From the IMG/VR virus record IMGVR_UViG_2529292735_000007: DNA of 12,295 nucleotides, one strand, 5' to 3'. This stretch comes from a virus (lineage: Duplodnaviria > Heunggongvirae > Uroviricota > Caudoviricetes). The position numbers and the translations under genes were made by a program. Below the pieces are notes generated by a model. That model was not told where the DNA came from and searched no databases. It was given only the letters and a program-made list of their open reading frames with translations. This document shows positions 670 to 9,461 of the stretch, in pieces (position 1 is the stretch's first letter; each line of letters starts with the position of its first letter).

Positions 670-911
670 CCATTCTGGACTACATCGCCGCCAATCCGGG
701 TTGTAGCGGTGGAGAAATCGCCGCAGCACTGAATACCCCAACCACAGCCATTAATGCGGAGTTACGCCGACTCTGGCGCAGCGGTTCAGTCATAAGAAAA
801 GAGCGCAAAACAGGTGGTCGCTTTTCTTACCAGATAAACCCGATGCCGTTCGGGTGCGGCAATCCACTTACCAACATGTTTAACCAGCTACTGAAGGAAG
901 CCAGAGCATGA
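666..911 (+). CDS. putative winged-helix DNA-binding protein (81 aa)
   Basis: Translation LDYIAANPGCSGGEIAAALNTPTTAINAELRRLWRSGSVIRKERKTGGRFSYQI has the helix / helix-turn-helix / beta-wing layout typical of small winged-helix regulators; start and stop both overlap neighbours by ATGA. Confidence 0.5.
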   Translation: MTILDYIAANPGCSGGEIAAALNTPTTAINAELRRLWRSGSVIRKERKTGGRFSYQINPMPFGCGNPLTNMFNQLLKEARA

Positions 912-1207
912 GCACCATCAACCACCAGGAACTACGCGAACTGGCGACTGACCTGCAACGAATGGCAACGCATCAAAAATTACTGGCGTTTCGCGCAATG
1001 CTCTCGCCATCTGCCGTGCTGGCACTGCTGGATGAGCTGGAGCACGCCAGAACCATGGCTCCTGCCATTCGTCTGACGCTCCATCATGAAATCAAGGATT
1101 TCTGCGCGACGCTGGAGTCACCAGGTGAATCAGAAACGCCGGAAGCAATGCAGCAGGAGCTGCTGCAACGCATCGACAACGTTTTCGATTTTTTCCTTAA
1201 CCAGTAA
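908..1207 (+). CDS. hypothetical protein (99 aa)
   Basis: ORF translationally coupled to the upstream gene (ATGA at 908-911); helical, acidic C-terminus; no motif recognised. Confidence 0.45.
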   Translation: MSTINHQELRELATDLQRMATHQKLLAFRAMLSPSAVLALLDELEHARTMAPAIRLTLHHEIKDFCATLESPGESETPEAMQQELLQRIDNVFDFFLNQ

Positions 1208-1773: not shown

Positions 1774-2093
1774 GTAACCACTATGCACACACAAAAAAAC
1801 CGCTTGCCATGCCGCAATCAGTCAGGTTACATTTCCGCTGCGCCTCATAAAACGGGTGCCGGGATTGGAACCCCGCTGACAACCAAAGCGCACAACCGCG
1901 CCAGCGGTTTTTTTGTGCGTACCGTATCGCCACGTCTTTTTCGCACACGAATTATGGTGAGGCGTACGGGGCCGACTTCGGTCGGGCCGGGTTCTTTGGT
2001 TGCCGGTAGTTCCAACCCTGTACGTCTCACCACCCCGAGCTTGGAACCTCTGGATGGTGAGTTTTCAAAACTTACAACCAAAGAGGCCACACC
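1774..2093 (+). promoter_or_regulatory. structured non-coding region (candidate small RNA, attenuator or leader) between the small-gene operon and the replication module
   Basis: No ORF with protein-like composition or Shine-Dalgarno; contains a GC hairpin with UUCG loop (CCGAC-TTCG-GTCGG, about 1970..1988), complementary segments GTTCCAACC (about 2009..2017) / TTGGAACC (2041..2048) and CTCACCA (about 2029..2035) / TGGTGAG (about 2055..2061), and repeated CAACCAAAG. Confidence 0.3.
1893..1915 (+). terminator. putative rho-independent terminator
   Basis: ACCGC-gcca-GCGGT hairpin (1895..1908) immediately followed by a run of 7 T (1908..1914); lies about 120 nt downstream of the stop at 1773. 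Confidence 0.4.
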
Positions 2094-2768: not shown

Positions 2769-5591
2769 ATGACGGCAGAGTACATCAGGGACTGGCAACA
2801 ACCGCGCCACGCGGTGGGGCGTGAAGGAACGGGGATCCCCGCTCCTGAATCCGCGCTTTCCTCCTGGCTGGGTGCCTACCGGGTAGAGAACGAGCGCCGC
2901 CAGGAAATGGCTGATGCGGCGTTCTCCGCCACGCCGCTGGGCAACCTGATTAATAAAAGCCTGGACGCACAGAAAAAACAGGACAAAACCATCACACTGG
3001 CAGGAGACGCCAGAAAACAGGCACGCGGCGCGGTGGATGAAGCCATGGCCTCGCTGCGCCTGCTGCCGTCCTATCTGCGCGATCCGCTTATTCGCCACCT
3101 CTCCTTCCTGCGCAAAAAACAGGAAGCCGATCGCCGGAAAGGCAAAAAGAGCTGGCAGGCGGAACGCTATGCACGCGGAACCCTGCGCAAAATATTCGAA
3201 CGTCTGGACCGCACTGATCACCGCTGGCTGACACCGGATTATCGCTCCCTTGCTGGACGCGAACGCCTGGACGATTTGCTTTACCTGCCGCAGCTCAACA
3301 AACACCAGATACAGACGCTGGCCACCATGACGGCGGCGATGTTCAGCAGCACCTTCGAAAAACTCTGCGATGGCTTTGGCGCGACTGATGGCGAACTGAC
3401 CATGGATGTAACGCTGAAGGCGTATCAGATGCTGGCCCGCATGGCGTTACACCTGCACGCCATGCCTCCACATTATGACGCACTGACAACAGACAAAGAC
3501 CGGAGGAACGAACCGGACACAGAGCTGCTGCCGGGCGCAATCCTTCGCCTGACCTGTGCGGAATGGTGGAAACGCAAACTATGGCTGTTACGTTGCGAGT
3601 GGAGAGAAGAACAACTCCGCGCCGCCTGTCTGGTTTCCAGAAAAACATCGCCCTATCTGAGCCAGGACGCGTTAAGCGAGTTTCGCGCACAGCGCGAGAA
3701 AACACGCGATTTCCTGAAAAGTTTCATGCTGGAAAACGAAGACGGGTTCACGATTGATCTCGAGACAGTGTATTACGCGGGAGTAAGTAACCCGGTTCAC
3801 CGTAAGGCAGAAATGATGGCCACCATGAAGGGACTGGAACTTCTGGCCGAAGCCCGTGGCGACAGAGCGGTGTTTCTGACTGTCACCTGCCCGTCAAAAT
3901 ACCACGCAACAACGGAGAACGGTCATCCGAACCCCAAATGGAACGGGGCCACCATGCGCGACTCCAGCGATTACCTGGTTAACACGTTTTTTGCGGCGGT
4001 CCGCAAAAAACTGAACCGCGACGGCCTGCGCTGGTATGGCATCCGCACGGTGGAGCCTCACCATGACGGCACCGTGCACTGGCATATGATGGTCTTTGCT
4101 CATCCGGAAGAAATCGACACCATTGTGTCCCACGTCCGCGATATTGCCATTCAGGAAGACCGCCACGAGCTGGGCAATGATATTACTCCACGCTTTAAAG
4201 TGGAGTATGTCGACGGCTCAAAAGGCACACCAACCAGCTATATCGCGACCTACATCGGGAAAAACCTGGACAGCCGCGCCGTGGATGGCATCGACCCGAA
4301 AACGGGCAAACCACGCGTTGACCACGAAACCGGAAAATCAATGGCCGAGAGCGTGGAGCGCGCCATCGGTTGGGCACGCCTTCACCGGGTCCGCCAGTTC
4401 CAGTTCTTTGGCATCCCCTCCCGTCAGGTGTGGCGTGAACTCCGCCGCCTTGCCAGCCAGATGGCACGCAACCCGGAAGGCCCGCAACGGCTGAAGGATG
4501 ACGCAATGGATGCGGTACTCGCTGCCGCTGATGCCGGATGTTTTGCCACCTACATAGAGAAACAGGGCGGCGTACTTGTTCCACGCAAAGACTACCTGAT
4601 TCGCACCGCCTACGACCTCGCCGATGAGCTGAACGATTACGGCGAACAGAGTGTACAGATTTACGGGATCTGGTCACCACTCATCGGGGAATCCTCCCGT
4701 GTGTGCACGCACCCGGATAACTGGAAGCTGGTAAGACGTAAACCGGAACAGGAAGGCAGCGCCCACGAAAATGGTTTTGACCTTCAGGGCGGCCCTGCCG
4801 CCCCTTGGACTCGTGGCAATAACTGTCCCAGTGTACAGGAAACAGACAACAACGGGACAGAACAGCCGGAAGAACGGCCAGCACCGTGGCCGCAGCTTCC
4901 TGACGGCATTGAAGTGAATGAATGGATGCACTCACTGAAACGGCACGAACGCCGGGCGCTGATGCGTTCGCTGCGTGACAAACAGGCCAAAAACAGCAGC
5001 GATGAAATGCAGAACTGGACGCAGAGCCGCAAACAGCCGCGGCCTTTGCCTGATAACCACGAGTTACTCGCTAAAGAATGGCGGGAGTCTGCTGAATCTC
5101 TCGGCCTGCATATTGGTGAACAGCAGATGCAGCACCTGTTACGGGGCGGCAGTCTGTACGTTGACGGCAGCATCATTGCACCGCAGGGATTTGAAATTGT
5201 ACGCAAACCGGATACCCGCCCGGACAGCCGAATCACGCAGCTCTGGCAGCGCCTGAGCCGTAATCACGGCGTAAGCAGCACGGAGATCCGCCATAACCCG
5301 GTCGCCAGCTATCTGGAACAGCTGGGGGCATCAGACCCTGAAGCCGCCGCACGCCTGGCATCCACACTTCAGCAGGACCAGAACACCATGAAAACACCCG
5401 TTACCGTGCTTTCTGACATGCTGCGCGCCATCCGCGACGCAGAGCACGCACAGAGAATCAGTGAAACCACTGAACGCGCCCGCCGCAAAGCAGACCTGCT
5501 GCGGGGTGGCCTGACCAGTGGAAACAAAAAACAGACAGAAACGGGATTCACAAATCCCGTAAATGAGCAAAAAACGCGCCGCGATATATGA
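2769..5591 (+). CDS. A: rolling-circle replication initiator (HUH-type endonuclease, P2 gpA / phiX174 gpA superfamily I), 940 aa
   Basis: Translation contains EPHHDGTVHWHMMVFAHPEE (HWH at nt 4077..4085) and the paired active-site tyrosines in SYIATYIGKN (Tyr codons 4239..4241 and 4251..4253, Y-x3-Y spacing as in phiX174 gpA YVAKYV); position upstream of the Q-P-O head genes matches P2-like prophage order. Confidence 0.85.
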   Translation: MTAEYIRDWQQPRHAVGREGTGIPAPESALSSWLGAYRVENERRQEMADAAFSATPLGNLINKSLDAQKKQDKTITLAGDARKQARGAVDEAMASLRLLPSYLRDPLIRHLSFLRKKQEADRRKGKKSWQAERYARGTLRKIFERLDRTDHRWLTPDYRSLAGRERLDDLLYLPQLNKHQIQTLATMTAAMFSSTFEKLCDGFGATDGELTMDVTLKAYQMLARMALHLHAMPPHYDALTTDKDRRNEPDTELLPGAILRLTCAEWWKRKLWLLRCEWREEQLRAACLVSRKTSPYLSQDALSEFRAQREKTRDFLKSFMLENEDGFTIDLETVYYAGVSNPVHRKAEMMATMKGLELLAEARGDRAVFLTVTCPSKYHATTENGHPNPKWNGATMRDSSDYLVNTFFAAVRKKLNRDGLRWYGIRTVEPHHDGTVHWHMMVFAHPEEIDTIVSHVRDIAIQEDRHELGNDITPRFKVEYVDGSKGTPTSYIATYIGKNLDSRAVDGIDPKTGKPRVDHETGKSMAESVERAIGWARLHRVRQFQFFGIPSRQVWRELRRLASQMARNPEGPQRLKDDAMDAVLAAADAGCFATYIEKQGGVLVPRKDYLIRTAYDLADELNDYGEQSVQIYGIWSPLIGESSRVCTHPDNWKLVRRKPEQEGSAHENGFDLQGGPAAPWTRGNNCPSVQETDNNGTEQPEERPAPWPQLPDGIEVNEWMHSLKRHERRALMRSLRDKQAKNSSDEMQNWTQSRKQPRPLPDNHELLAKEWRESAESLGLHIGEQQMQHLLRGGSLYVDGSIIAPQGFEIVRKPDTRPDSRITQLWQRLSRNHGVSSTEIRHNPVASYLEQLGASDPEAAARLASTLQQDQNTMKTPVTVLSDMLRAIRDAEHAQRISETTERARRKADLLRGGLTSGNKKQTETGFTNPVNEQKTRRDI

Positions 5592-5636
5592 AGCGCGCAC
5601 AAAACAGGCAAAAACGGGATTTCAGAATCCCGTAAA
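5538..5636. promoter_or_regulatory. parC-like operator/centromere: two copies of a 20-bp palindrome upstream of parM
   Basis: AAACGGGATTcacaAATCCCGTAAA (palindrome 5541..5560) and AAACGGGATTtcagAATCCCGTAAA (palindrome 5614..5633), 73 bp apart centre to centre, flanked by CAAAAAAC-type A-tracts; the first copy lies inside the 3' end of the rep CDS. Confidence 0.45.
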
Positions 5637-5667
5637 CGATTAATTAATCAACATAAGGAAAAGCGAC

Positions 5668-6627
5668 ATGAAAATTTGTATCGACGACGGCTCCACCAAC
5701 ATCAAGCTGGCATGGACTGAGAACGGCGAACGCCGCAACGCCATCAGCCCGAACAGCTTCAAGTCGGAATGGTCTGCGCCGTTCGGTGGCACGCAGCCCG
5801 CGAACTACATGCTTGATGGCGTGCGCTATGGTTTTGATCCGGTCAGCGATCGCTTTGTCCAGACGACCGACACGCAATACCAGTACAGTGATGTGAATGT
5901 CATTGCCATTCATCACGCACTGGTCAAATCAGGCATCACGCCACAGGAGGTGGATGTGGTTGTCACCCTGCCACTGAGCGAGTATTTCGACACAAACGCA
6001 CAGCCGGACATGGCCAACATCAACCGCAAAAAAGCGAACGTTATGCGCCCGGTGGAGTACCAGAACGGCGAAGCATTCACTATCCGTAACGTGCGGGTTA
6101 TGCCTGAATCCATTCCGGCTGGCTTTAAAGCACTGGCTGACATGAGTCCGTTTGAATCCCTGCTGATTGTGGATTTAGGCGGAACCACGCTGGATGTGGC
6201 AAAGGTTCAGGGACAACTGGCAGGTATCAGCCAGGTGTTTTGCGATCCACACGTAGGCGTTTCCCTGATGGCCGATGCCGTACTGTCGGTGATGGCCACT
6301 AACGGTATGCGTACCAGTCACCACATCGCCAATACCATTATCGAACATCGCCATGATGAAGCCTGGTTGCGCCAACACATCCACAATGACGCGCATTACG
6401 CCAGCCTGATGGCGGTTATTCGTGAAAAGGAAGAAACACTGAAACAACGCGTGATCCGCGCGCTGGCGGGTTTTTCGGGTTACGGACGGGTGATGGTTGT
6501 CGGTGGTGGGGCGGAGATTGTGGCACCCGCTATCCGCGAAGCCTGCGGAGTTAATGCGACTTTCATCGCGGACGGGGTGCCACAGTTTGCTCTGGTTAAT
6601 GGGCTGTACGCAATGGACAAGGAGTAA
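5668..6627 (+). CDS. parM: ParM/StbA-family actin-like segregation ATPase (type II partition), 319 aa
   Basis: AAGGAAAA Shine-Dalgarno then ATG; translation matches plasmid R1 ParM as recalled from memory along its length (ICIDDGSTNIKLAW, ISPNSFK, QYSDVNVIAIHHAL, VMPESIPAGF, LLIVDLGGTTLDV, GVSL, VVGGGAE, LVNGLYA). Confidence 0.9.
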   Translation: MKICIDDGSTNIKLAWTENGERRNAISPNSFKSEWSAPFGGTQPANYMLDGVRYGFDPVSDRFVQTTDTQYQYSDVNVIAIHHALVKSGITPQEVDVVVTLPLSEYFDTNAQPDMANINRKKANVMRPVEYQNGEAFTIRNVRVMPESIPAGFKALADMSPFESLLIVDLGGTTLDVAKVQGQLAGISQVFCDPHVGVSLMADAVLSVMATNGMRTSHHIANTIIEHRHDEAWLRQHIHNDAHYASLMAVIREKEETLKQRVIRALAGFSGYGRVMVVGGGAEIVAPAIREACGVNATFIADGVPQFALVNGLYAMDKE

Positions 6628-6631
6628 ACCA

Positions 6632-6946
6632 ATGACGACACCAACCAGACGGATAAGTTTCTATCTGAAGCCCGCCGCCGTCAATAGTGAACGGAAGGCG
6701 TGTAATTACCTCGACAGCCTGCCAGCCTCTGAACGCAGCCGCGCGCAACGCGCGGCCTTTCTGGCCGGGCTGGCACTCATAAAACGCGATCCTGCATTTG
6801 CCTATTGGTTGGCCGAATGGCCGGAAGAAGGAGCTGCGCCAGCAAAGAATAATATTCAGAGTAAATATGCCAGCACACCTGCCACCGGAAGCAATCACAG
6901 CACTAGCGAGATAAGAAAGAACATTCAGTCATTTTTCCCGGAGTGA
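6632..6946 (+). CDS. parR: ParR-like ribbon-helix-helix centromere-binding protein / partition adaptor, about 105 aa
   Basis: ATG at 6632, 4 nt after the parM stop; N-terminus RRISFYLKPAAVNSERKACNYLDSLPASERSRAQRAAFLAGLALIKRDP resembles R1 ParR (RTIAFKLNPDVNQ...LDSIPQGERSRLNRAALTAGLALYRQDP, from memory); the track ORF 6497..6946 is the same frame extended upstream. Confidence 0.75.
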   Translation: MTTPTRRISFYLKPAAVNSERKACNYLDSLPASERSRAQRAAFLAGLALIKRDPAFAYWLAEWPEEGAAPAKNNIQSKYASTPATGSNHSTSEIRKNIQSFFPE

Positions 6947-6965
6947 AAACAGGAGAGGTGCATCT

Positions 6966-7397
6966 ATGGCAACTATTCCCAAAAAATGGTTACAACGCAA
7001 AATCGCAGACCTTGAATCGTGTCGTGAAGACATCCCATTTGGCCTTGATGAAAACGATCACAATATGTTAATCGCACTGAAAATCGCACTCACATCGCTG
7101 GAAGCGAAACCTGTTGCATGGACTGATGATGAGGAACTGCGTGATGTCAAGCAGTATGGTTTCGGTGAGATATTTCAGTGTCCGCCAGATAAATACGCGG
7201 ACCCGCGCCGTGTTATCCCTATGTATCAAGAGCCGCCAGCGCCAGCAGTACCAGATGGGCTGGTTAGAGCGGTGCGTTTCTATGAACAGGTTAAGCGTGA
7301 AAATCCGCCAGCCGAAACCGGAGCATGGAAAGACGCTGTTGACTGGGTGCTCAAAGAGGCTTGCCAAGCTGTAAACATTGGCATCAAAGGAGAGTGA
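6966..7397 (+). CDS. hypothetical protein (143 aa), accessory-locus cargo gene 1
   Basis: ATG at 6966 with AGGAGAGG Shine-Dalgarno 7 nt upstream; contains the motif IALTSLEAKPVAW shared with the gene at 7690; proline-rich middle (YQEPPAPAVPDG). Confidence 0.6.
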   Translation: MATIPKKWLQRKIADLESCREDIPFGLDENDHNMLIALKIALTSLEAKPVAWTDDEELRDVKQYGFGEIFQCPPDKYADPRRVIPMYQEPPAPAVPDGLVRAVRFYEQVKRENPPAETGAWKDAVDWVLKEACQAVNIGIKGE

Positions 7398-7398
7398 T

Positions 7399-7686
7399 AT
7401 GGCAACTTTGCAGGAATTAATCGACCTGACGCCAGAACAGGAAAAAGCGTGGAATCGCCTTGTGAAGGCTGTAAAGGATTTCAGGGCAGCCGGAGGAAAG
7501 TTTTATAGCGTCCTGGACACGCTGAGCGCATACAACGGCGAGCACGTAGCCAGCATTGATAACGATAAGGGCTACCACACTGCAAGCGTTTATATGCCTA
7601 GCATTGATGCGCCAGGGCTAACCAGTTGGGCTGATGATTGGCACGGCATCACGCTGAAAGATGGCGTTGAAGTGGATGAGGACTAA
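7399..7686 (+). CDS. hypothetical protein (95 aa), accessory-locus cargo gene 2
   Basis: ATG at 7399 (1 nt after the previous stop) with AAAGGAGAG Shine-Dalgarno; acidic C-terminus; the track ORF 7378..7686 is the same frame with an alternative upstream start. Confidence 0.55.
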   Translation: MATLQELIDLTPEQEKAWNRLVKAVKDFRAAGGKFYSVLDTLSAYNGEHVASIDNDKGYHTASVYMPSIDAPGLTSWADDWHGITLKDGVEVDED

Positions 7687-7689
7687 CAC

Positions 7690-7950
7690 ATGACAACTTT
7701 CACCGACAAAGAACTGATTAAAGAAATCAAAGAGCGCATAGGTAGCCTGGACGTGAGAGACAATATTGAACGCCGTGCTTATGAAATTGCTCTGGTATCG
7801 CTGGAAGCAGAGCCAGTAGCATGGATGCATGTAAATAACGGCATCGGAATACCAGCAATAACAATGAGTAAAGAGGTTGCAGAGAGTTGGTTATCAAAAG
7901 GCTGGTATGTCCAACCCTTACATCTAGCCCAGCCTGCATCAAAGCTATAG
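7690..7950 (+). CDS. hypothetical protein (86 aa), accessory-locus cargo gene 3, paralogous motif to gene 1
   Basis: ATG at 7690 with GAGGA 7 nt upstream; contains IALVSLEAEPVAW (compare IALTSLEAKPVAW in 6966..7397); followed by a terminator hairpin. Confidence 0.55.
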   Translation: MTTFTDKELIKEIKERIGSLDVRDNIERRAYEIALVSLEAEPVAWMHVNNGIGIPAITMSKEVAESWLSKGWYVQPLHLAQPASKL

Positions 7951-7960
7951 AAATGAGCCA

Positions 7961-7983
7961 AAACGCCCTCTTCCAGGGCGTTT
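7961..7983 (+). terminator. rho-independent terminator closing the accessory operon
   Basis: AAACGCCCT-cttcc-AGGGCGTTT hairpin followed by ATTTCAA; begins 11 nt after the stop at 7950. Confidence 0.5.
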
Positions 7984-7990
7984 ATTTCAA

Positions 7991-8017
7991 TGCACAATAG
8001 TGCACAAATTTGCACAA
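7991..8017. repeat. three direct repeats of TGCACAA at exact 10-bp phasing
   Basis: TGCACAA at 7991, 8001 and 8011 (tgcacaaTAGtgcacaaATTtgcacaa), one helical turn apart, followed by a T7 run; looks like a phased protein-binding array. Confidence 0.6.
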
Positions 8018-8029
8018 TTTTTTTGAACG

Positions 8030-8441
8030 ACTTTTTGCCCTTCCGGCCCGCGGGGCGACTGGATCCGTCAAGGATCCGTGCGTGCACAAAAAAACGCGTT
8101 TTTTCTGCGCGCAGGTGACGGGGGAACAGCCCGCGTTTCAGGGGGTAAATAGCGTTCCCTTAACGATGTCGCAGCGACACGACAGAATGGCCGTATTTCT
8201 CACGCTGAGCGTGAAAAATACGTGAGGGCTTTTGATTTGATGGGGTGAAAGGTAAGGCCGTCAAAATCGCACTGAGGCGGCGAGAACATGCAGTCAGCGC
8301 AGTGGGATTGCGTAAGAGTCTGACCGTCGATGATGGCAATAAGCAGGAAAGCGTCGTGAAATTATCTGACTGATACAGGAGCTGGAGAGTCGGGGCATAA
8401 ATTTTTTATGCCCCGGCGAAGCAGCAGACAAGCGAAGCGCG
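8030..8441. other. non-coding region downstream of portal gene Q; expected location of cos and packaging signals
   Basis: No credible ORF; contains GGATCCGT direct repeats (about 8062..8079), the perfect palindrome AAAAAACGCGTTTTTT (8089..8104) and a GCGGGG-containing stretch (about 8047..8056) only loosely similar to the P2/186 cohesive-end sequence as recalled; the exact cos site could not be identified. Confidence 0.3.
8392..8414. terminator. palindromic hairpin about 28 nt downstream of the Q stop (possible bidirectional terminator)
   Basis: GGGGCATAAA-ttt-TTTATGCCCC perfect inverted repeat; lacks a clean external U-tract on either strand, so the terminator call is tentative. Confidence 0.35.
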
Positions 8442-9461
8442 TCAGGATGTGGGCTGGGTGTCTAACAGTGCGTAAGGGTTAAAGCGGATCACCTCTTCGC
8501 CAAGCCAGTCATTGATGTGCTTCATGGCCTCCATGACGGGCATCAGCTCGTTAATTGCGTAAACCCGCGCGGCCTTCTCCACATCACCAAGCGCACTTTT
8601 TTCGCCCGGCATCGCCCCCATCAGTTGCGGCGGAACGCGGTGCGCAGCCAGCACATCATCACGGGATGCCGCCTTAACATTCATGAACTCATCTTTTGCG
8701 GTGATCTGCTGGAACGGCAAAATTTGCACCCCCTCTTTGCCCCCGTTGGGCGCATGAATGAGCACGTTTTTAAACGCACCACCACCACGTGCACCCTGTA
8801 GCGTTTCTTTCAGGGAGTCCATGCTTTCGCGGTTTACCTGCGCTGCACCGATGTAGATGATGCACCCGGCGTGGGATCCGTTGTCGTAATACAGTTTTCT
8901 GAACATGTCCGCCGAATGAGACAGGCTGGCCGAGAGTAATGCGCCGAGATATTCCGGCATGCCGTAGATTTCCTGGTTAATGTCAGGATTCATCAGGTGG
9001 CACACTTTGCCAGGGCGAAACTGAAACGCGTCCTTGCCATCCTGCACATACCACCATGATTCAAGATCGCTTCCGCGTCGCATGTATTTCGCCAGGGCGT
9101 GCCGTAATTTAAGCGGTTCGCCGAGCATATTACTCCGAAGCTCAAGGAATGCGTTACCGAACACAAAACAGTCCAGCGCCAGCGCCGAGAAATCCTGCCG
9201 GGAAAGCAGCGGGTGCGGGATGTAGCAACCGAGTAATACATTGCGCTTAAAGTAAAGCGCAGACTGATGCCAGGACGTTTGCCGGGCAGCTCTTGCCAGA
9301 CCGTACCAGTCCACCGGGGTTTCATACCACCGCCCGTTATCAGCACAGTACATATTGTCCAGCAGGTCATGCCCGGTCAGGCGATAAGGCCCATCAAATG
9401 TGAATGCACTGAGCGACGATTCATTCCTGAGCGCATCAGCGAGATCAATGCGTGAACTCAT
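8442..9461 (-). CDS. Q: portal protein (P2 gpQ-like), about 339 aa
   Basis: Long minus-strand ORF directly downstream of the terminase large subunit gene and divergent from scaffold/capsid genes, as in P2 (Q-P leftward, O-N rightward); size matches gpQ; start placed at the first ATG (9461..9459, MSSRIDLADAL...), whereas the track ORF extends to 9572 via a non-ATG start. Confidence 0.8.
   Translation of the reverse strand: MSSRIDLADALRNESSLSAFTFDGPYRLTGHDLLDNMYCADNGRWYETPVDWYGLARAARQTSWHQSALYFKRNVLLGCYIPHPLLSRQDFSALALDCFVFGNAFLELRSNMLGEPLKLRHALAKYMRRGSDLESWWYVQDGKDAFQFRPGKVCHLMNPDINQEIYGMPEYLGALLSASLSHSADMFRKLYYDNGSHAGCIIYIGAAQVNRESMDSLKETLQGARGGGAFKNVLIHAPNGGKEGVQILPFQQITAKDEFMNVKAASRDDVLAAHRVPPQLMGAMPGEKSALGDVEKAARVYAINELMPVMEAMKHINDWLGEEVIRFNPYALLDTQPTS

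Follow-up and report, generated by a model that had tools for sequence, protein, structure and literature searches.

Ea22 of phage lambda and of Shiga toxin (Stx) phages (V1-V3; PF13935) is made from the early pL transcript, is non-essential and pro-lysogenic, forms tetramers, has dimeric, portable C-terminal domains and acts through host partners (PMC7093339, PMC10834534, PMC8614690). In the exo-xis (early-left) region of lambdoid genomes, genes of the Ea22 type keep company with a gene for a 95-residue protein (L0066 of phage 933W; phrog_2821) and with genes for DUF551-type proteins (PF04448), a class that includes EaA of phage P22, L0065 of phage 933W and YfdS of Escherichia coli CPS-53. 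Conserved boundary (linker) sequences at the junctions of lambdoid genes (HK97, HK022, HK620) have been proposed as sites of modular exchange. In P2-like phages, the main variable and defence hotspot lies between gpA and gpQ, and approximately one quarter of these phages carry a partition system there (PMC9122126; PMC13586616). Here we analyse three consecutive open reading frames, ORF1, ORF2 and ORF3, at positions 6966-7950 of a 12,295-nucleotide stretch of viral DNA (Caudoviricetes; IMG/VR record IMGVR_UViG_2529292735_000007), the whole of which, at its full length and not the feature under study, is called the window.

The explanation that we favour, with a probability of roughly 0.6, is that ORF1-3 are a short array of accessory genes of the lambdoid exo-xis ("ea22-DUF551") kind, coupled in translation but each exchangeable independently, situated in the hotspot of a P88-like prophage, and that their products would be protein-binding modulators. 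It combines direct observations (the structure of the genes, the families to which they belong, their chimeric architecture, the breakpoints, the repeats at the junctions and the location in the hotspot) with a conditional role for the products.

Each of the described systems resembles the locus in part. ORF1 shares with Ea22 an exo-xis/early-left neighbourhood in lambdoid phages, a K/R-G-E tail and mosaic, portable C-terminal domains (PMC7093339, PMC10834534, PMC8614690), but it lacks the Ead/Ea22 N-terminal and coiled-coil region, and no PDB chain, the solved C-terminal domain of lambda Ea22 among them, matches its C-terminal domain in sequence; moreover, the host phage here is P2-type rather than lambdoid, and the pro-lysogenic phenotype has been shown only for full-length Ea22 of lambda and Stx phages. 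ORF2 is 99-100% identical to the 95-residue protein of Stx and other lambdoid phages (99% to L0066 of 933W, with one residue different) and has the same flanking junctions, but sits in a P2-type phage. The first 40-45 residues of ORF3 are 86-95% identical to the N-termini of L0065 and of the DUF551 protein of phage 720R6, and ORF3, like the genes of these proteins, directly follows the 95-residue gene with a gap of 3 nucleotides (nt); however, ORF3 ends without DUF551 at the second of two conserved hinges described below, and ORF1 joins the same N-terminal module to a different C-terminal domain. Like other P2 gpA-gpQ cargo (old, tin and the catalogues of Rousset et al. 2022 and Moura de Sousa et al. 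2026), ORF1-3 occupy the interval from the replication gene to the portal gene, next to cos, and vary in near-identical phages; unlike it, they include no recognisable defence gene, have an early-lytic lambdoid source, and are co-oriented with the replication and partition genes instead of forming an autonomous moron.

Prophage setting and origin of the block

The window is a P88-like prophage (Xuanwuvirus, Peduoviridae; P2-type), 83-89% of which is covered by Citrobacter phage Shae_phiSM and Escherichia phage P88 at 97-99% identity. Its gene order is gpA (940 residues; PF05840, E = 1.3e-130), ParM, a StbB-type protein and ORF1-3, followed by the portal and terminase genes on the minus strand and the gpO scaffold gene. 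ORF1-3 occupy the gpA-gpQ cargo hotspot of P2-like phages, and the supplementary tables of hotspot catalogues list loci of the composition 'StbA + Plasmid_stab_B + hypothetical…/Ead_Ea22' (PMC9122126; PMC13586616).

Lambdoid and P22-like phages (158 phage records, including mEp460, vB_EcoP-720R6, 933W and many Stx phages) share the stretch 7250-7817 at 95-97% DNA identity as part of their early-left "ea"/exo-xis region, where it comprises the 3' end of an Ea22-type gene, the 95-residue gene (L0066 in 933W) and the 5' end of a DUF551/EaA-type gene. This homology starts at 7250-7252, at or just after hinge 2 of ORF1 (the start also for P88 gp20), and ends at the PVAW residues of ORF3. Because the surrounding backbone is P2-type, such close identity points to a lambdoid origin of the block, which was thus acquired horizontally from another phage lineage. 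The preliminary description of this DNA had suspected horizontally acquired cargo from a lower G+C content (GC) than that of the rep and head genes; the difference is real but modest (0.482 for 6966-7950 and 0.476 for 7400-8000, versus 0.575 for rep and 0.538 both for portal and for the window overall), and the suspicion is borne out by the approximately 96% identity to lambdoid and Stx phage DNA and by the varying content of the site in near-identical prophages.

Gene structure and expression signals

ORF1 (6966-7397, plus strand) encodes 143 amino acids, ORF2 (7399-7686, plus strand) encodes 95 from its ATG, a TTG-extended form of 102 residues also being in the ORF list, and ORF3 (7690-7950, plus strand) encodes 86; all three are free of frameshifts and internal stops. 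Spacings of 1 nt (ORF1-ORF2) and 3 nt (ORF2-ORF3) separate the genes, and a purine-rich Shine-Dalgarno (SD) sequence precedes each start by 6-10 nt: aggagagg for ORF1 (6951-6958, plus strand; read from the sequence), aaaggagag for ORF2 and gaggac for ORF3. Downstream lies a terminator-like hairpin with a 9-bp GC-rich stem (AAACGCCCU-CUUCC-AGGGCGUUU then AUUUCAAU; 7961-7983, plus strand), for which a 91-nt stretch has a minimum free energy of -21 kcal/mol and folds better than shuffled sequences (z = -3.16). A strict consensus terminator scan listed a weaker site at 8000-8015 instead and left this hairpin out because its U-tract is short. Homology with all P88-like relatives resumes at 7924-7991.

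Upstream of ORF1 are parM (5668-6627, plus strand; ParM PF06406, E = 1.8e-82) and a stbB/parR-like partition gene (6632-6946, plus strand; PF10784 Plasmid_stab_B, E = 2.8e-26), the start of which was set by an annotated 104-residue gene in the related locus L004. The 19 nt between stbB and ORF1 contain no detectable promoter or terminator, and a scan of 5400-8600 for sigma-70-like promoters found no site. With only this short, signal-free gap after the end of stbB (6946), ORF1-3 are likely to be cotranscribed with parM-stbB, and the transcription unit probably begins at or before parM. The SD sequences, the short gaps and the downstream hairpin, from which a three-gene operon had been proposed, were all seen; the proposal needs correction in that the unit probably also holds parM-stbB.

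Modular architecture of ORF1 and ORF3

ORF1 consists of an N-module (residues 1-52), a middle segment (53-89), hinge 2 (90-99; PPAPAVPDGL, 7233-7262, plus strand) and an Ea22-type C-terminal domain (approximately 96-143) ending in KGE. Its family comprises 1458 homolog clusters in Enterobacteriaceae prophages, and the family alignment (A2) runs in the order of alternative N-helices, a conserved hinge (ALASLEAEPVAW), alternative middle segments, a conserved APPAPVVPEGL block corresponding to hinge 2, and alternative C-terminal domains. The C-terminal part of ORF1 matches phrog_26213 (E = 5e-33), and residues 96-143 or thereabouts align with the C-termini of the PF13935 proteins encoded directly upstream of ORF2 in the homologous loci L013 and L017; the genes at this position in L013, L017 and L002 match PF13935 at E = 5e-28 to 9e-43. 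Since this domain sits on PF13935 proteins while ORF1 itself, like ORF2 and ORF3, has no PF13935 match in Pfam at E ≤ 1, ORF1 is a chimera of a DUF551/EaA-type N-module and a variant of the Ea22 C-terminal domain.

ORF3 consists of an N-module (residues 1-45) and a middle segment, and stops at hinge 2 (HLAQPASKL, then stop). Relatives of approximately 150 residues, which match 95% of ORF3 at 85% identity, continue from there into DUF551 (P0314-P0316 are examples) or into one of at least four other C-terminal domains (alignment A4); neither ORF1 nor ORF3 matches PF04448. Several near relatives of ORF3 (P0313, P0319, P0320, P0323, P0337 and others) are labelled 'valyl-tRNA synthetase' in NCBI records, evidently a propagated misannotation, since these proteins have only 117-140 residues and are of the N-module type.

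The N-modules of the two proteins share the 13-residue motif IALxSLEAxPVAW, or hinge 1. Copy 1 (IALTSLEAKPVAW; 7083-7121, plus strand; ORF1 residues 40-52) spans the end of helix 2 and the start of a short strand; copy 2 (IALVSLEAEPVAW; 7786-7824, plus strand; ORF3 residues 33-45) is the point at which the approximately 96% identity to lambdoid DNA ends (7790-7817). The near-identity of the copies, first noticed from the sequence alone, survives careful alignment: BLASTP of ORF1 against ORF3 finds 15 identities in 27 positions (E = 9e-6), the underlying 42-nt DNA repeat (7081-7122 and 7784-7825) is 76% identical, and both proteins match PHROG 660, 5117, 60 and 3323 from residue 1 with E-values from 3e-4 to 1e-45 (phrog_660 at 2.6e-45 and phrog_5117 at 9.7e-9 for ORF1; phrog_5117 at 2.9e-26 and phrog_660 at 2.5e-21 for ORF3). 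Profile-profile comparison with hhalign aligns them across the N-helix, hinge 1, the middle segment and hinge 2 (approximately 90 N-terminal residues) with a probability of 99.8%, a score inflated by one chimeric row.

Of the duplicated domain proposed earlier, the homologous module common to ORF1 and ORF3 stands, but the copies are diverged paralogues and not a local duplication. Recent duplication in place is ruled out by the many synonymous differences between the motif copies and by flanking N-helices of different types; because the N-helices differ in this way and the motif DNA is only 76% identical, the modules must have come together through recombination. In ten versions of the motif, the DNA differs mainly at synonymous sites around a nearly constant TCG-CTG-GAA core, which argues that hinge 1 is kept by selection on the protein and not merely as identical DNA. 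The sequences diverge just after the motif, which marks the swap point of partner segments; in a family whose segmental mosaic is visible in alignments A2, A4 and A5, it constitutes the first of two conserved hinges and, in the predicted structure, ends helix 2 of an N-terminal helical hairpin.

In other prophages, the N-module (MTTFTDKELIKEI…SLE) is fused to a dATP/dGTP pyrophosphohydrolase (MazG-like) and DUF551 and, in one continuous frame, to DUF551 and an Rv2179c-like 3'-5' exoribonuclease (L010 4292-5107; L014 and L018 4292-5875). Given these fusions, the N-module precedes enzymatic effectors too.

The AlphaFold2 (AF2) model of ORF1 (predicted local distance difference test, pLDDT, 75) has helices at residues 6-22, 29-46, 55-64, 97-112 and 119-141, arranged as an N-terminal hairpin (6-22/29-46), a small α/β middle segment and a C-terminal hairpin (97-112/119-141). 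Fold searches of PDB and BFVD with this model returned only generic helical hairpins and uncharacterised phage or viral proteins; the model of ORF2 was poor. The best PDB match for an ORF1 hairpin is Aqs1 (6V7U), the quorum-sensing anti-activator of phage DMS3, over 44 residues with a root-mean-square deviation of 1.3 Å and 25% identity, which is not significant (E = 0.24) and for which the result table is silent as to whether the N- or C-terminal hairpin is meant. The likeness is one of shape only, in a generic fold with no sequence family link.

The ORF2 family

ORF2 is an acidic protein (isoelectric point, pI, 4.5) that matches phrog_2821 over its full length (residues 1-95 of 95; E = 6.9e-66), and it is extremely common, its exact sequence recurring across 16,417 index blocks of public assemblies. 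An exhaustive profile search of the family yielded 119 representatives at 50% identity, nearly all of them standalone proteins of 90-110 residues, with the conserved residues FYxVL…LNG…SWADDxH; phrog_2821 was also matched by all 66 of the aligned distant members. ORF2 has no relative in Pfam, NCBIfam, PADLOC or PDB, the PDB sequence search giving only noise. Compared with PDB, the family profile (alignment A3) produced a repeat-protein artefact and a weak match to the receiver domain 2rjn (E = 0.0027, most of both sequences covered); kinship with response-regulator receivers was not trusted, the family being without the acidic pocket residues. A conserved partner gene was sought near distant relatives of ORF2 and none was found, the contigs being short and the neighbours unrelated small phage genes.

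Exchange of genes at the hotspot

At least seven different contents occupy the hotspot site among closely related prophages. Designated by the lengths of their products, the genes are 143-95-86 in the window and in L026-L028 and L031-L033; 143-163-95-86, the 163-residue product belonging to the XF1762 family, in L029, L030 and L037-L039; 143-163 (XF1762)-87 in strain N31; 143-69-86 in strain GDAR2-2; and 143-87 in O104:H4 strains. The same hotspot holds gp19 and gp20 in P88 (L005 7576-7908 and 7905-8243) and an unrelated gene in Shae_phiSM. Prophages that are otherwise 97-99% identical lack the middle gene, carry another in its place or have a further gene beside it, an observation that leaves the dedicated three-gene unit suggested by the preliminary description unsupported and disfavours any obligate three-component system. 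In GDAR2-2, exactly one gene is exchanged, since identity is lost at 7403 and regained at 7677. In P88 gp20, an in-frame deletion has placed the final eight codons of ORF3 directly behind an ORF1-like C-terminal domain; within P88 gp19 lies a sequence (CSFCNKSQYEV…YICNECVDLC) that we take to resemble closely the N-terminal zinc-binding domain of ClpX.

The junction between ORF1 and ORF2 (…GGCATCAAAGGAGAGTGAtATGGCAACTTT; 7376-7410, plus strand) encodes the GIKGE tail and holds the ORF2 SD sequence, the stop codon, one spacer nucleotide and the start of ORF2; its codons AAA GGA GAG TGA t ATG (AAAGGAGAG, 7386-7401) are SD sequence, stop and start at once and give the KGE tail. Before ORF2, GGCATYSGCATCAAAGGAGRGTGAT and then ATG occur in 13 of 14 loci, behind at least four unrelated C-terminal domains; after ORF2, CAC and then ATGACNAC plus the N-module occur in 11 of 14, with at least seven different continuations at or just past SLEA. 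The XF1762 gene has the junction at either end, L006, L029, L030 and L019 each holding two copies, and in L006 the 35-nt stretch is repeated. By this comparison, whole genes are swapped at a repeated junction of approximately 25 nt that carries the SD sequence, the stop and the next start. As at lambdoid boundary sequences, a short stop/SD/start sequence lies between unrelated genes and coincides with mosaic breakpoints; the difference here is a second set of joints inside the coding sequence (hinges 1 and 2), where segments are shuffled in frame.

In some prophages, and on E. coli plasmids of approximately 56 kb, the XF1762 family gene (163 residues; L006 3300-3791; L029 and L030 2935-3426; L019 4164-4655) is an insertion that separates ORF1 from the gene that follows, and its product has the tail GIRIKGE.

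All Ea22 proteins end in K/R-G-E, the significance of which has been called unknown (Dydecka et al., PMC7093339). A KGE-type tail is also found on unrelated proteins (XF1762, and L0068 and L0069 of 933W) and on the Ea22 of 720R6, and junction tails were seen at the upstream genes of L001, L002 and L009-L019. Since the codons coincide with the SD sequence and the tail recurs on unrelated proteins, the tail is most simply explained as a translated junction, and the K/R-G-E ending of Ea22 proteins is probably a translated SD junction.

Possible roles of the products

Profile searches, which the preliminary description had recommended along with structure prediction, assigned all three proteins to PHROG families and gave nothing above noise in Pfam, NCBIfam or PADLOC. 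No match at E ≤ 1 to PADLOC-DB v2 was found for ORF1-3, ParM or StbB, no profile of a toxin-antitoxin family in Pfam or NCBIfam matched ORF1-3, and no enzymatic, nucleotide-binding, membrane or DNA-binding signature was found in them in Pfam, NCBIfam or PADLOC; PDB sequence searches returned nothing for ORF1 and ORF3. Nor did any of the three show homology to characterised structural or housekeeping phage proteins, in agreement with their earlier description as cargo.

Placed directly after parM-stbB and closed by the terminator-like hairpin, the array would supply its products along with those of the replication and partition genes. The products are acidic (pI 4.5-5.6) and would be non-enzymatic, probably oligomeric binders that modulate phage development or host functions by protein-protein contacts, by analogy with the pro-lysogenic, tetrameric Ea22 of lambda, and the shared N-module would act as a common oligomerisation or adaptor element. 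ORF1-3 are probably expressed early, either as Ea22-like lysogeny modulators or as counter-defence proteins.

Several points weigh against this explanation. No specific homology ties ORF1-3 to a molecular activity; the AF2 model of ORF2 is unreliable (pLDDT 57); and ORF3 could be an inert remnant. The promoter scan detected nothing that would time expression in a P2-type phage, and other genes of the hotspot, old and tin among them, are expressed in lysogens. Transfer of Ea22 function to ORF1 is weak, since the Ead/Ea22 N-terminal and coiled-coil region is absent from ORF1 and, in lambda, the Ea22 C-terminal domain alone fails to reproduce the phenotype (PMC10834534).

Possibly, though with a much lower probability, ORF1-3 serve counter-defence, as small acidic proteins that inhibit immune proteins of the host or of a prophage by binding to them; the rapid shuffling of segments and genes would then reflect an arms race. 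The lambdoid block from which they come adjoins the anti-host genes Gam, Abc2/anti-RecBCD and EaE, and a 2026 preprint shows direct inhibition of the P2 OLD nuclease by Oad2, an EaE-type protein that this lambdoid region encodes and that is at times found in fusion with EaD/Ea22 proteins; its authors propose that the region serves as a reservoir of anti-immunity proteins that evolve fast. The acidity of ORF2, the fusion of N-module proteins to MazG-like dATP/dGTP pyrophosphohydrolase domains and the identity of the best fold match of an ORF1 hairpin, a phage anti-activator, would fit such a role, although the match to Aqs1 concerns a generic 44-residue hairpin and is not significant. The argument is, however, purely one of guilt by association: comparison of ORF1-3 with their EaE/Oad2-type neighbours gave no similarity, and an identity of that type was rejected; and known anti-defence genes are rare in P2-like phages (28 of 1511; PMC13586616).

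A more elaborate version is speculative and, in our estimation, unlikely. The two in-frame hinges and the repeated SD/stop/start junction would give temperate enterobacterial phages a plug-and-play architecture for combinatorial early proteins, in which the N-module is a common adaptor or oligomerisation handle that delivers swappable effectors (the Ea22 C-terminal domain, DUF551, the MazG-like domain, the exoribonuclease) to a single target, host or immune, that all of them have in common. Copies that lack an effector, ORF3 for instance, would be decoys or regulators that co-assemble with ORF1-type proteins, and the block as a whole, in the P2 defence hotspot, would be counter-defence and not defence cargo.

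It is less probable again that the block is partly debris, with ORF3 the truncated form of a DUF551-type gene and ORF1 a chimera formed by accident, both carried along by recombination at junction repeats and lacking any current function. ORF3 does stop at hinge 2, where its relatives run on into DUF551 or other domains, an in-frame deletion in the same region gave rise to gp20 of P88, the databases hold many fragmentary forms, and the region is non-essential in lambda (PMC10834534). Yet the 86-residue form of ORF3 is intact, has a good SD sequence and recurs unchanged or at 94-99% identity in many E. coli and Shigella assemblies (the exact sequence in 143 index blocks); ORF1 is likewise conserved (152 blocks); the amino acids of the motif are maintained across synonymous change; and the reading frames are uninterrupted.

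Least likely of all is a prophage-expressed, three-gene anti-phage defence or superinfection exclusion system like old, tin and other hotspot systems, to which the P2 hotspot location (where most catalogued cargo is defence-related), the lower GC and variable content, and the precedent of a three-gene hotspot system without recognisable domains that protected against P1 (PMC9122126) might point, but which is contradicted by the lack of a PADLOC match and of any enzymatic, nucleotide-binding or membrane domain, by homologs that sit in the early-lytic pL operon of lambdoid phages and not in lysogen-expressed morons, by a middle gene that is dispensable or replaceable in near-identical prophages, by the failure to detect a promoter of the block's own, and by the way in which ORF1-3 run on from the replication and partition genes without a break and in the same orientation.

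Other features of the window

A 99-residue early gene (908-1207, plus strand), annotated as 'ead/Ea22-like family protein' in P88 and Shae_phiSM, has a sub-threshold match to PF13935 (E = 1.2e-4; 23 bits versus a cut-off of 27), and on the strength of this match and annotation would be a second Ea22-related gene, in the P2-type phage's own early operon. Also in the early region, upstream of a gene annotated as 'derepression protein' in P88, are Rfam matches above the gathering score to isrK (1840-1914, plus strand; 66.6 bits) and to C4 antisense RNA (1950-2037, plus strand; 85.3 bits), C4 being an antisense immunity element of the P1/P7 type; the 205-residue ORF called mechanically at 1783-2400, which overlaps both matches, is probably not a gene. 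Straddling the end of gpA just upstream of parM, two 42-nt direct repeats (5525-5566 and 5598-5639) are 81% identical and each contain a 20-bp palindrome (ACGGGATTnnnnAATCCCGT); they are candidates for a partition centromere or a ParR/StbB operator. Some relatives carry an extra 174-residue gene with no Pfam match between ORF3 and portal (L029 and L030, 4546-5070; L031, 4051-4575; L037-L039, 3328-3852). The corresponding site in the window is non-coding (7990-8440) and is presumably the location of cos.

Implications

The ORF1-3 block is ordinary mosaic accessory cargo, made up of known uncharacterised families in a known hotspot. Its value lies mainly in the map of domains and junctions, in the explanation of the KGE tail and in the transfer of genes from lambdoid phages to the P2 hotspot. 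The domain map (N-helix, hinge 1, middle segment, hinge 2, C-terminal domain) shows experimenters which pieces to test, and the junction offers a simple account of the "+GE" tail of Ea22, described in the literature as unexplained. Since lambdoid early-region genes move into the P2 hotspot, gpA-gpQ cargo should not be presumed to be defence. The families of ORF1-3 are among the commonest unexplained genes in prophages of E. coli, Shigella and Salmonella, including Stx phages and the P2-like prophage of the O104:H4 outbreak strain; if their products are indeed lysogeny modulators or immune inhibitors, they would have a bearing on Stx-prophage induction and on phage-phage competition.

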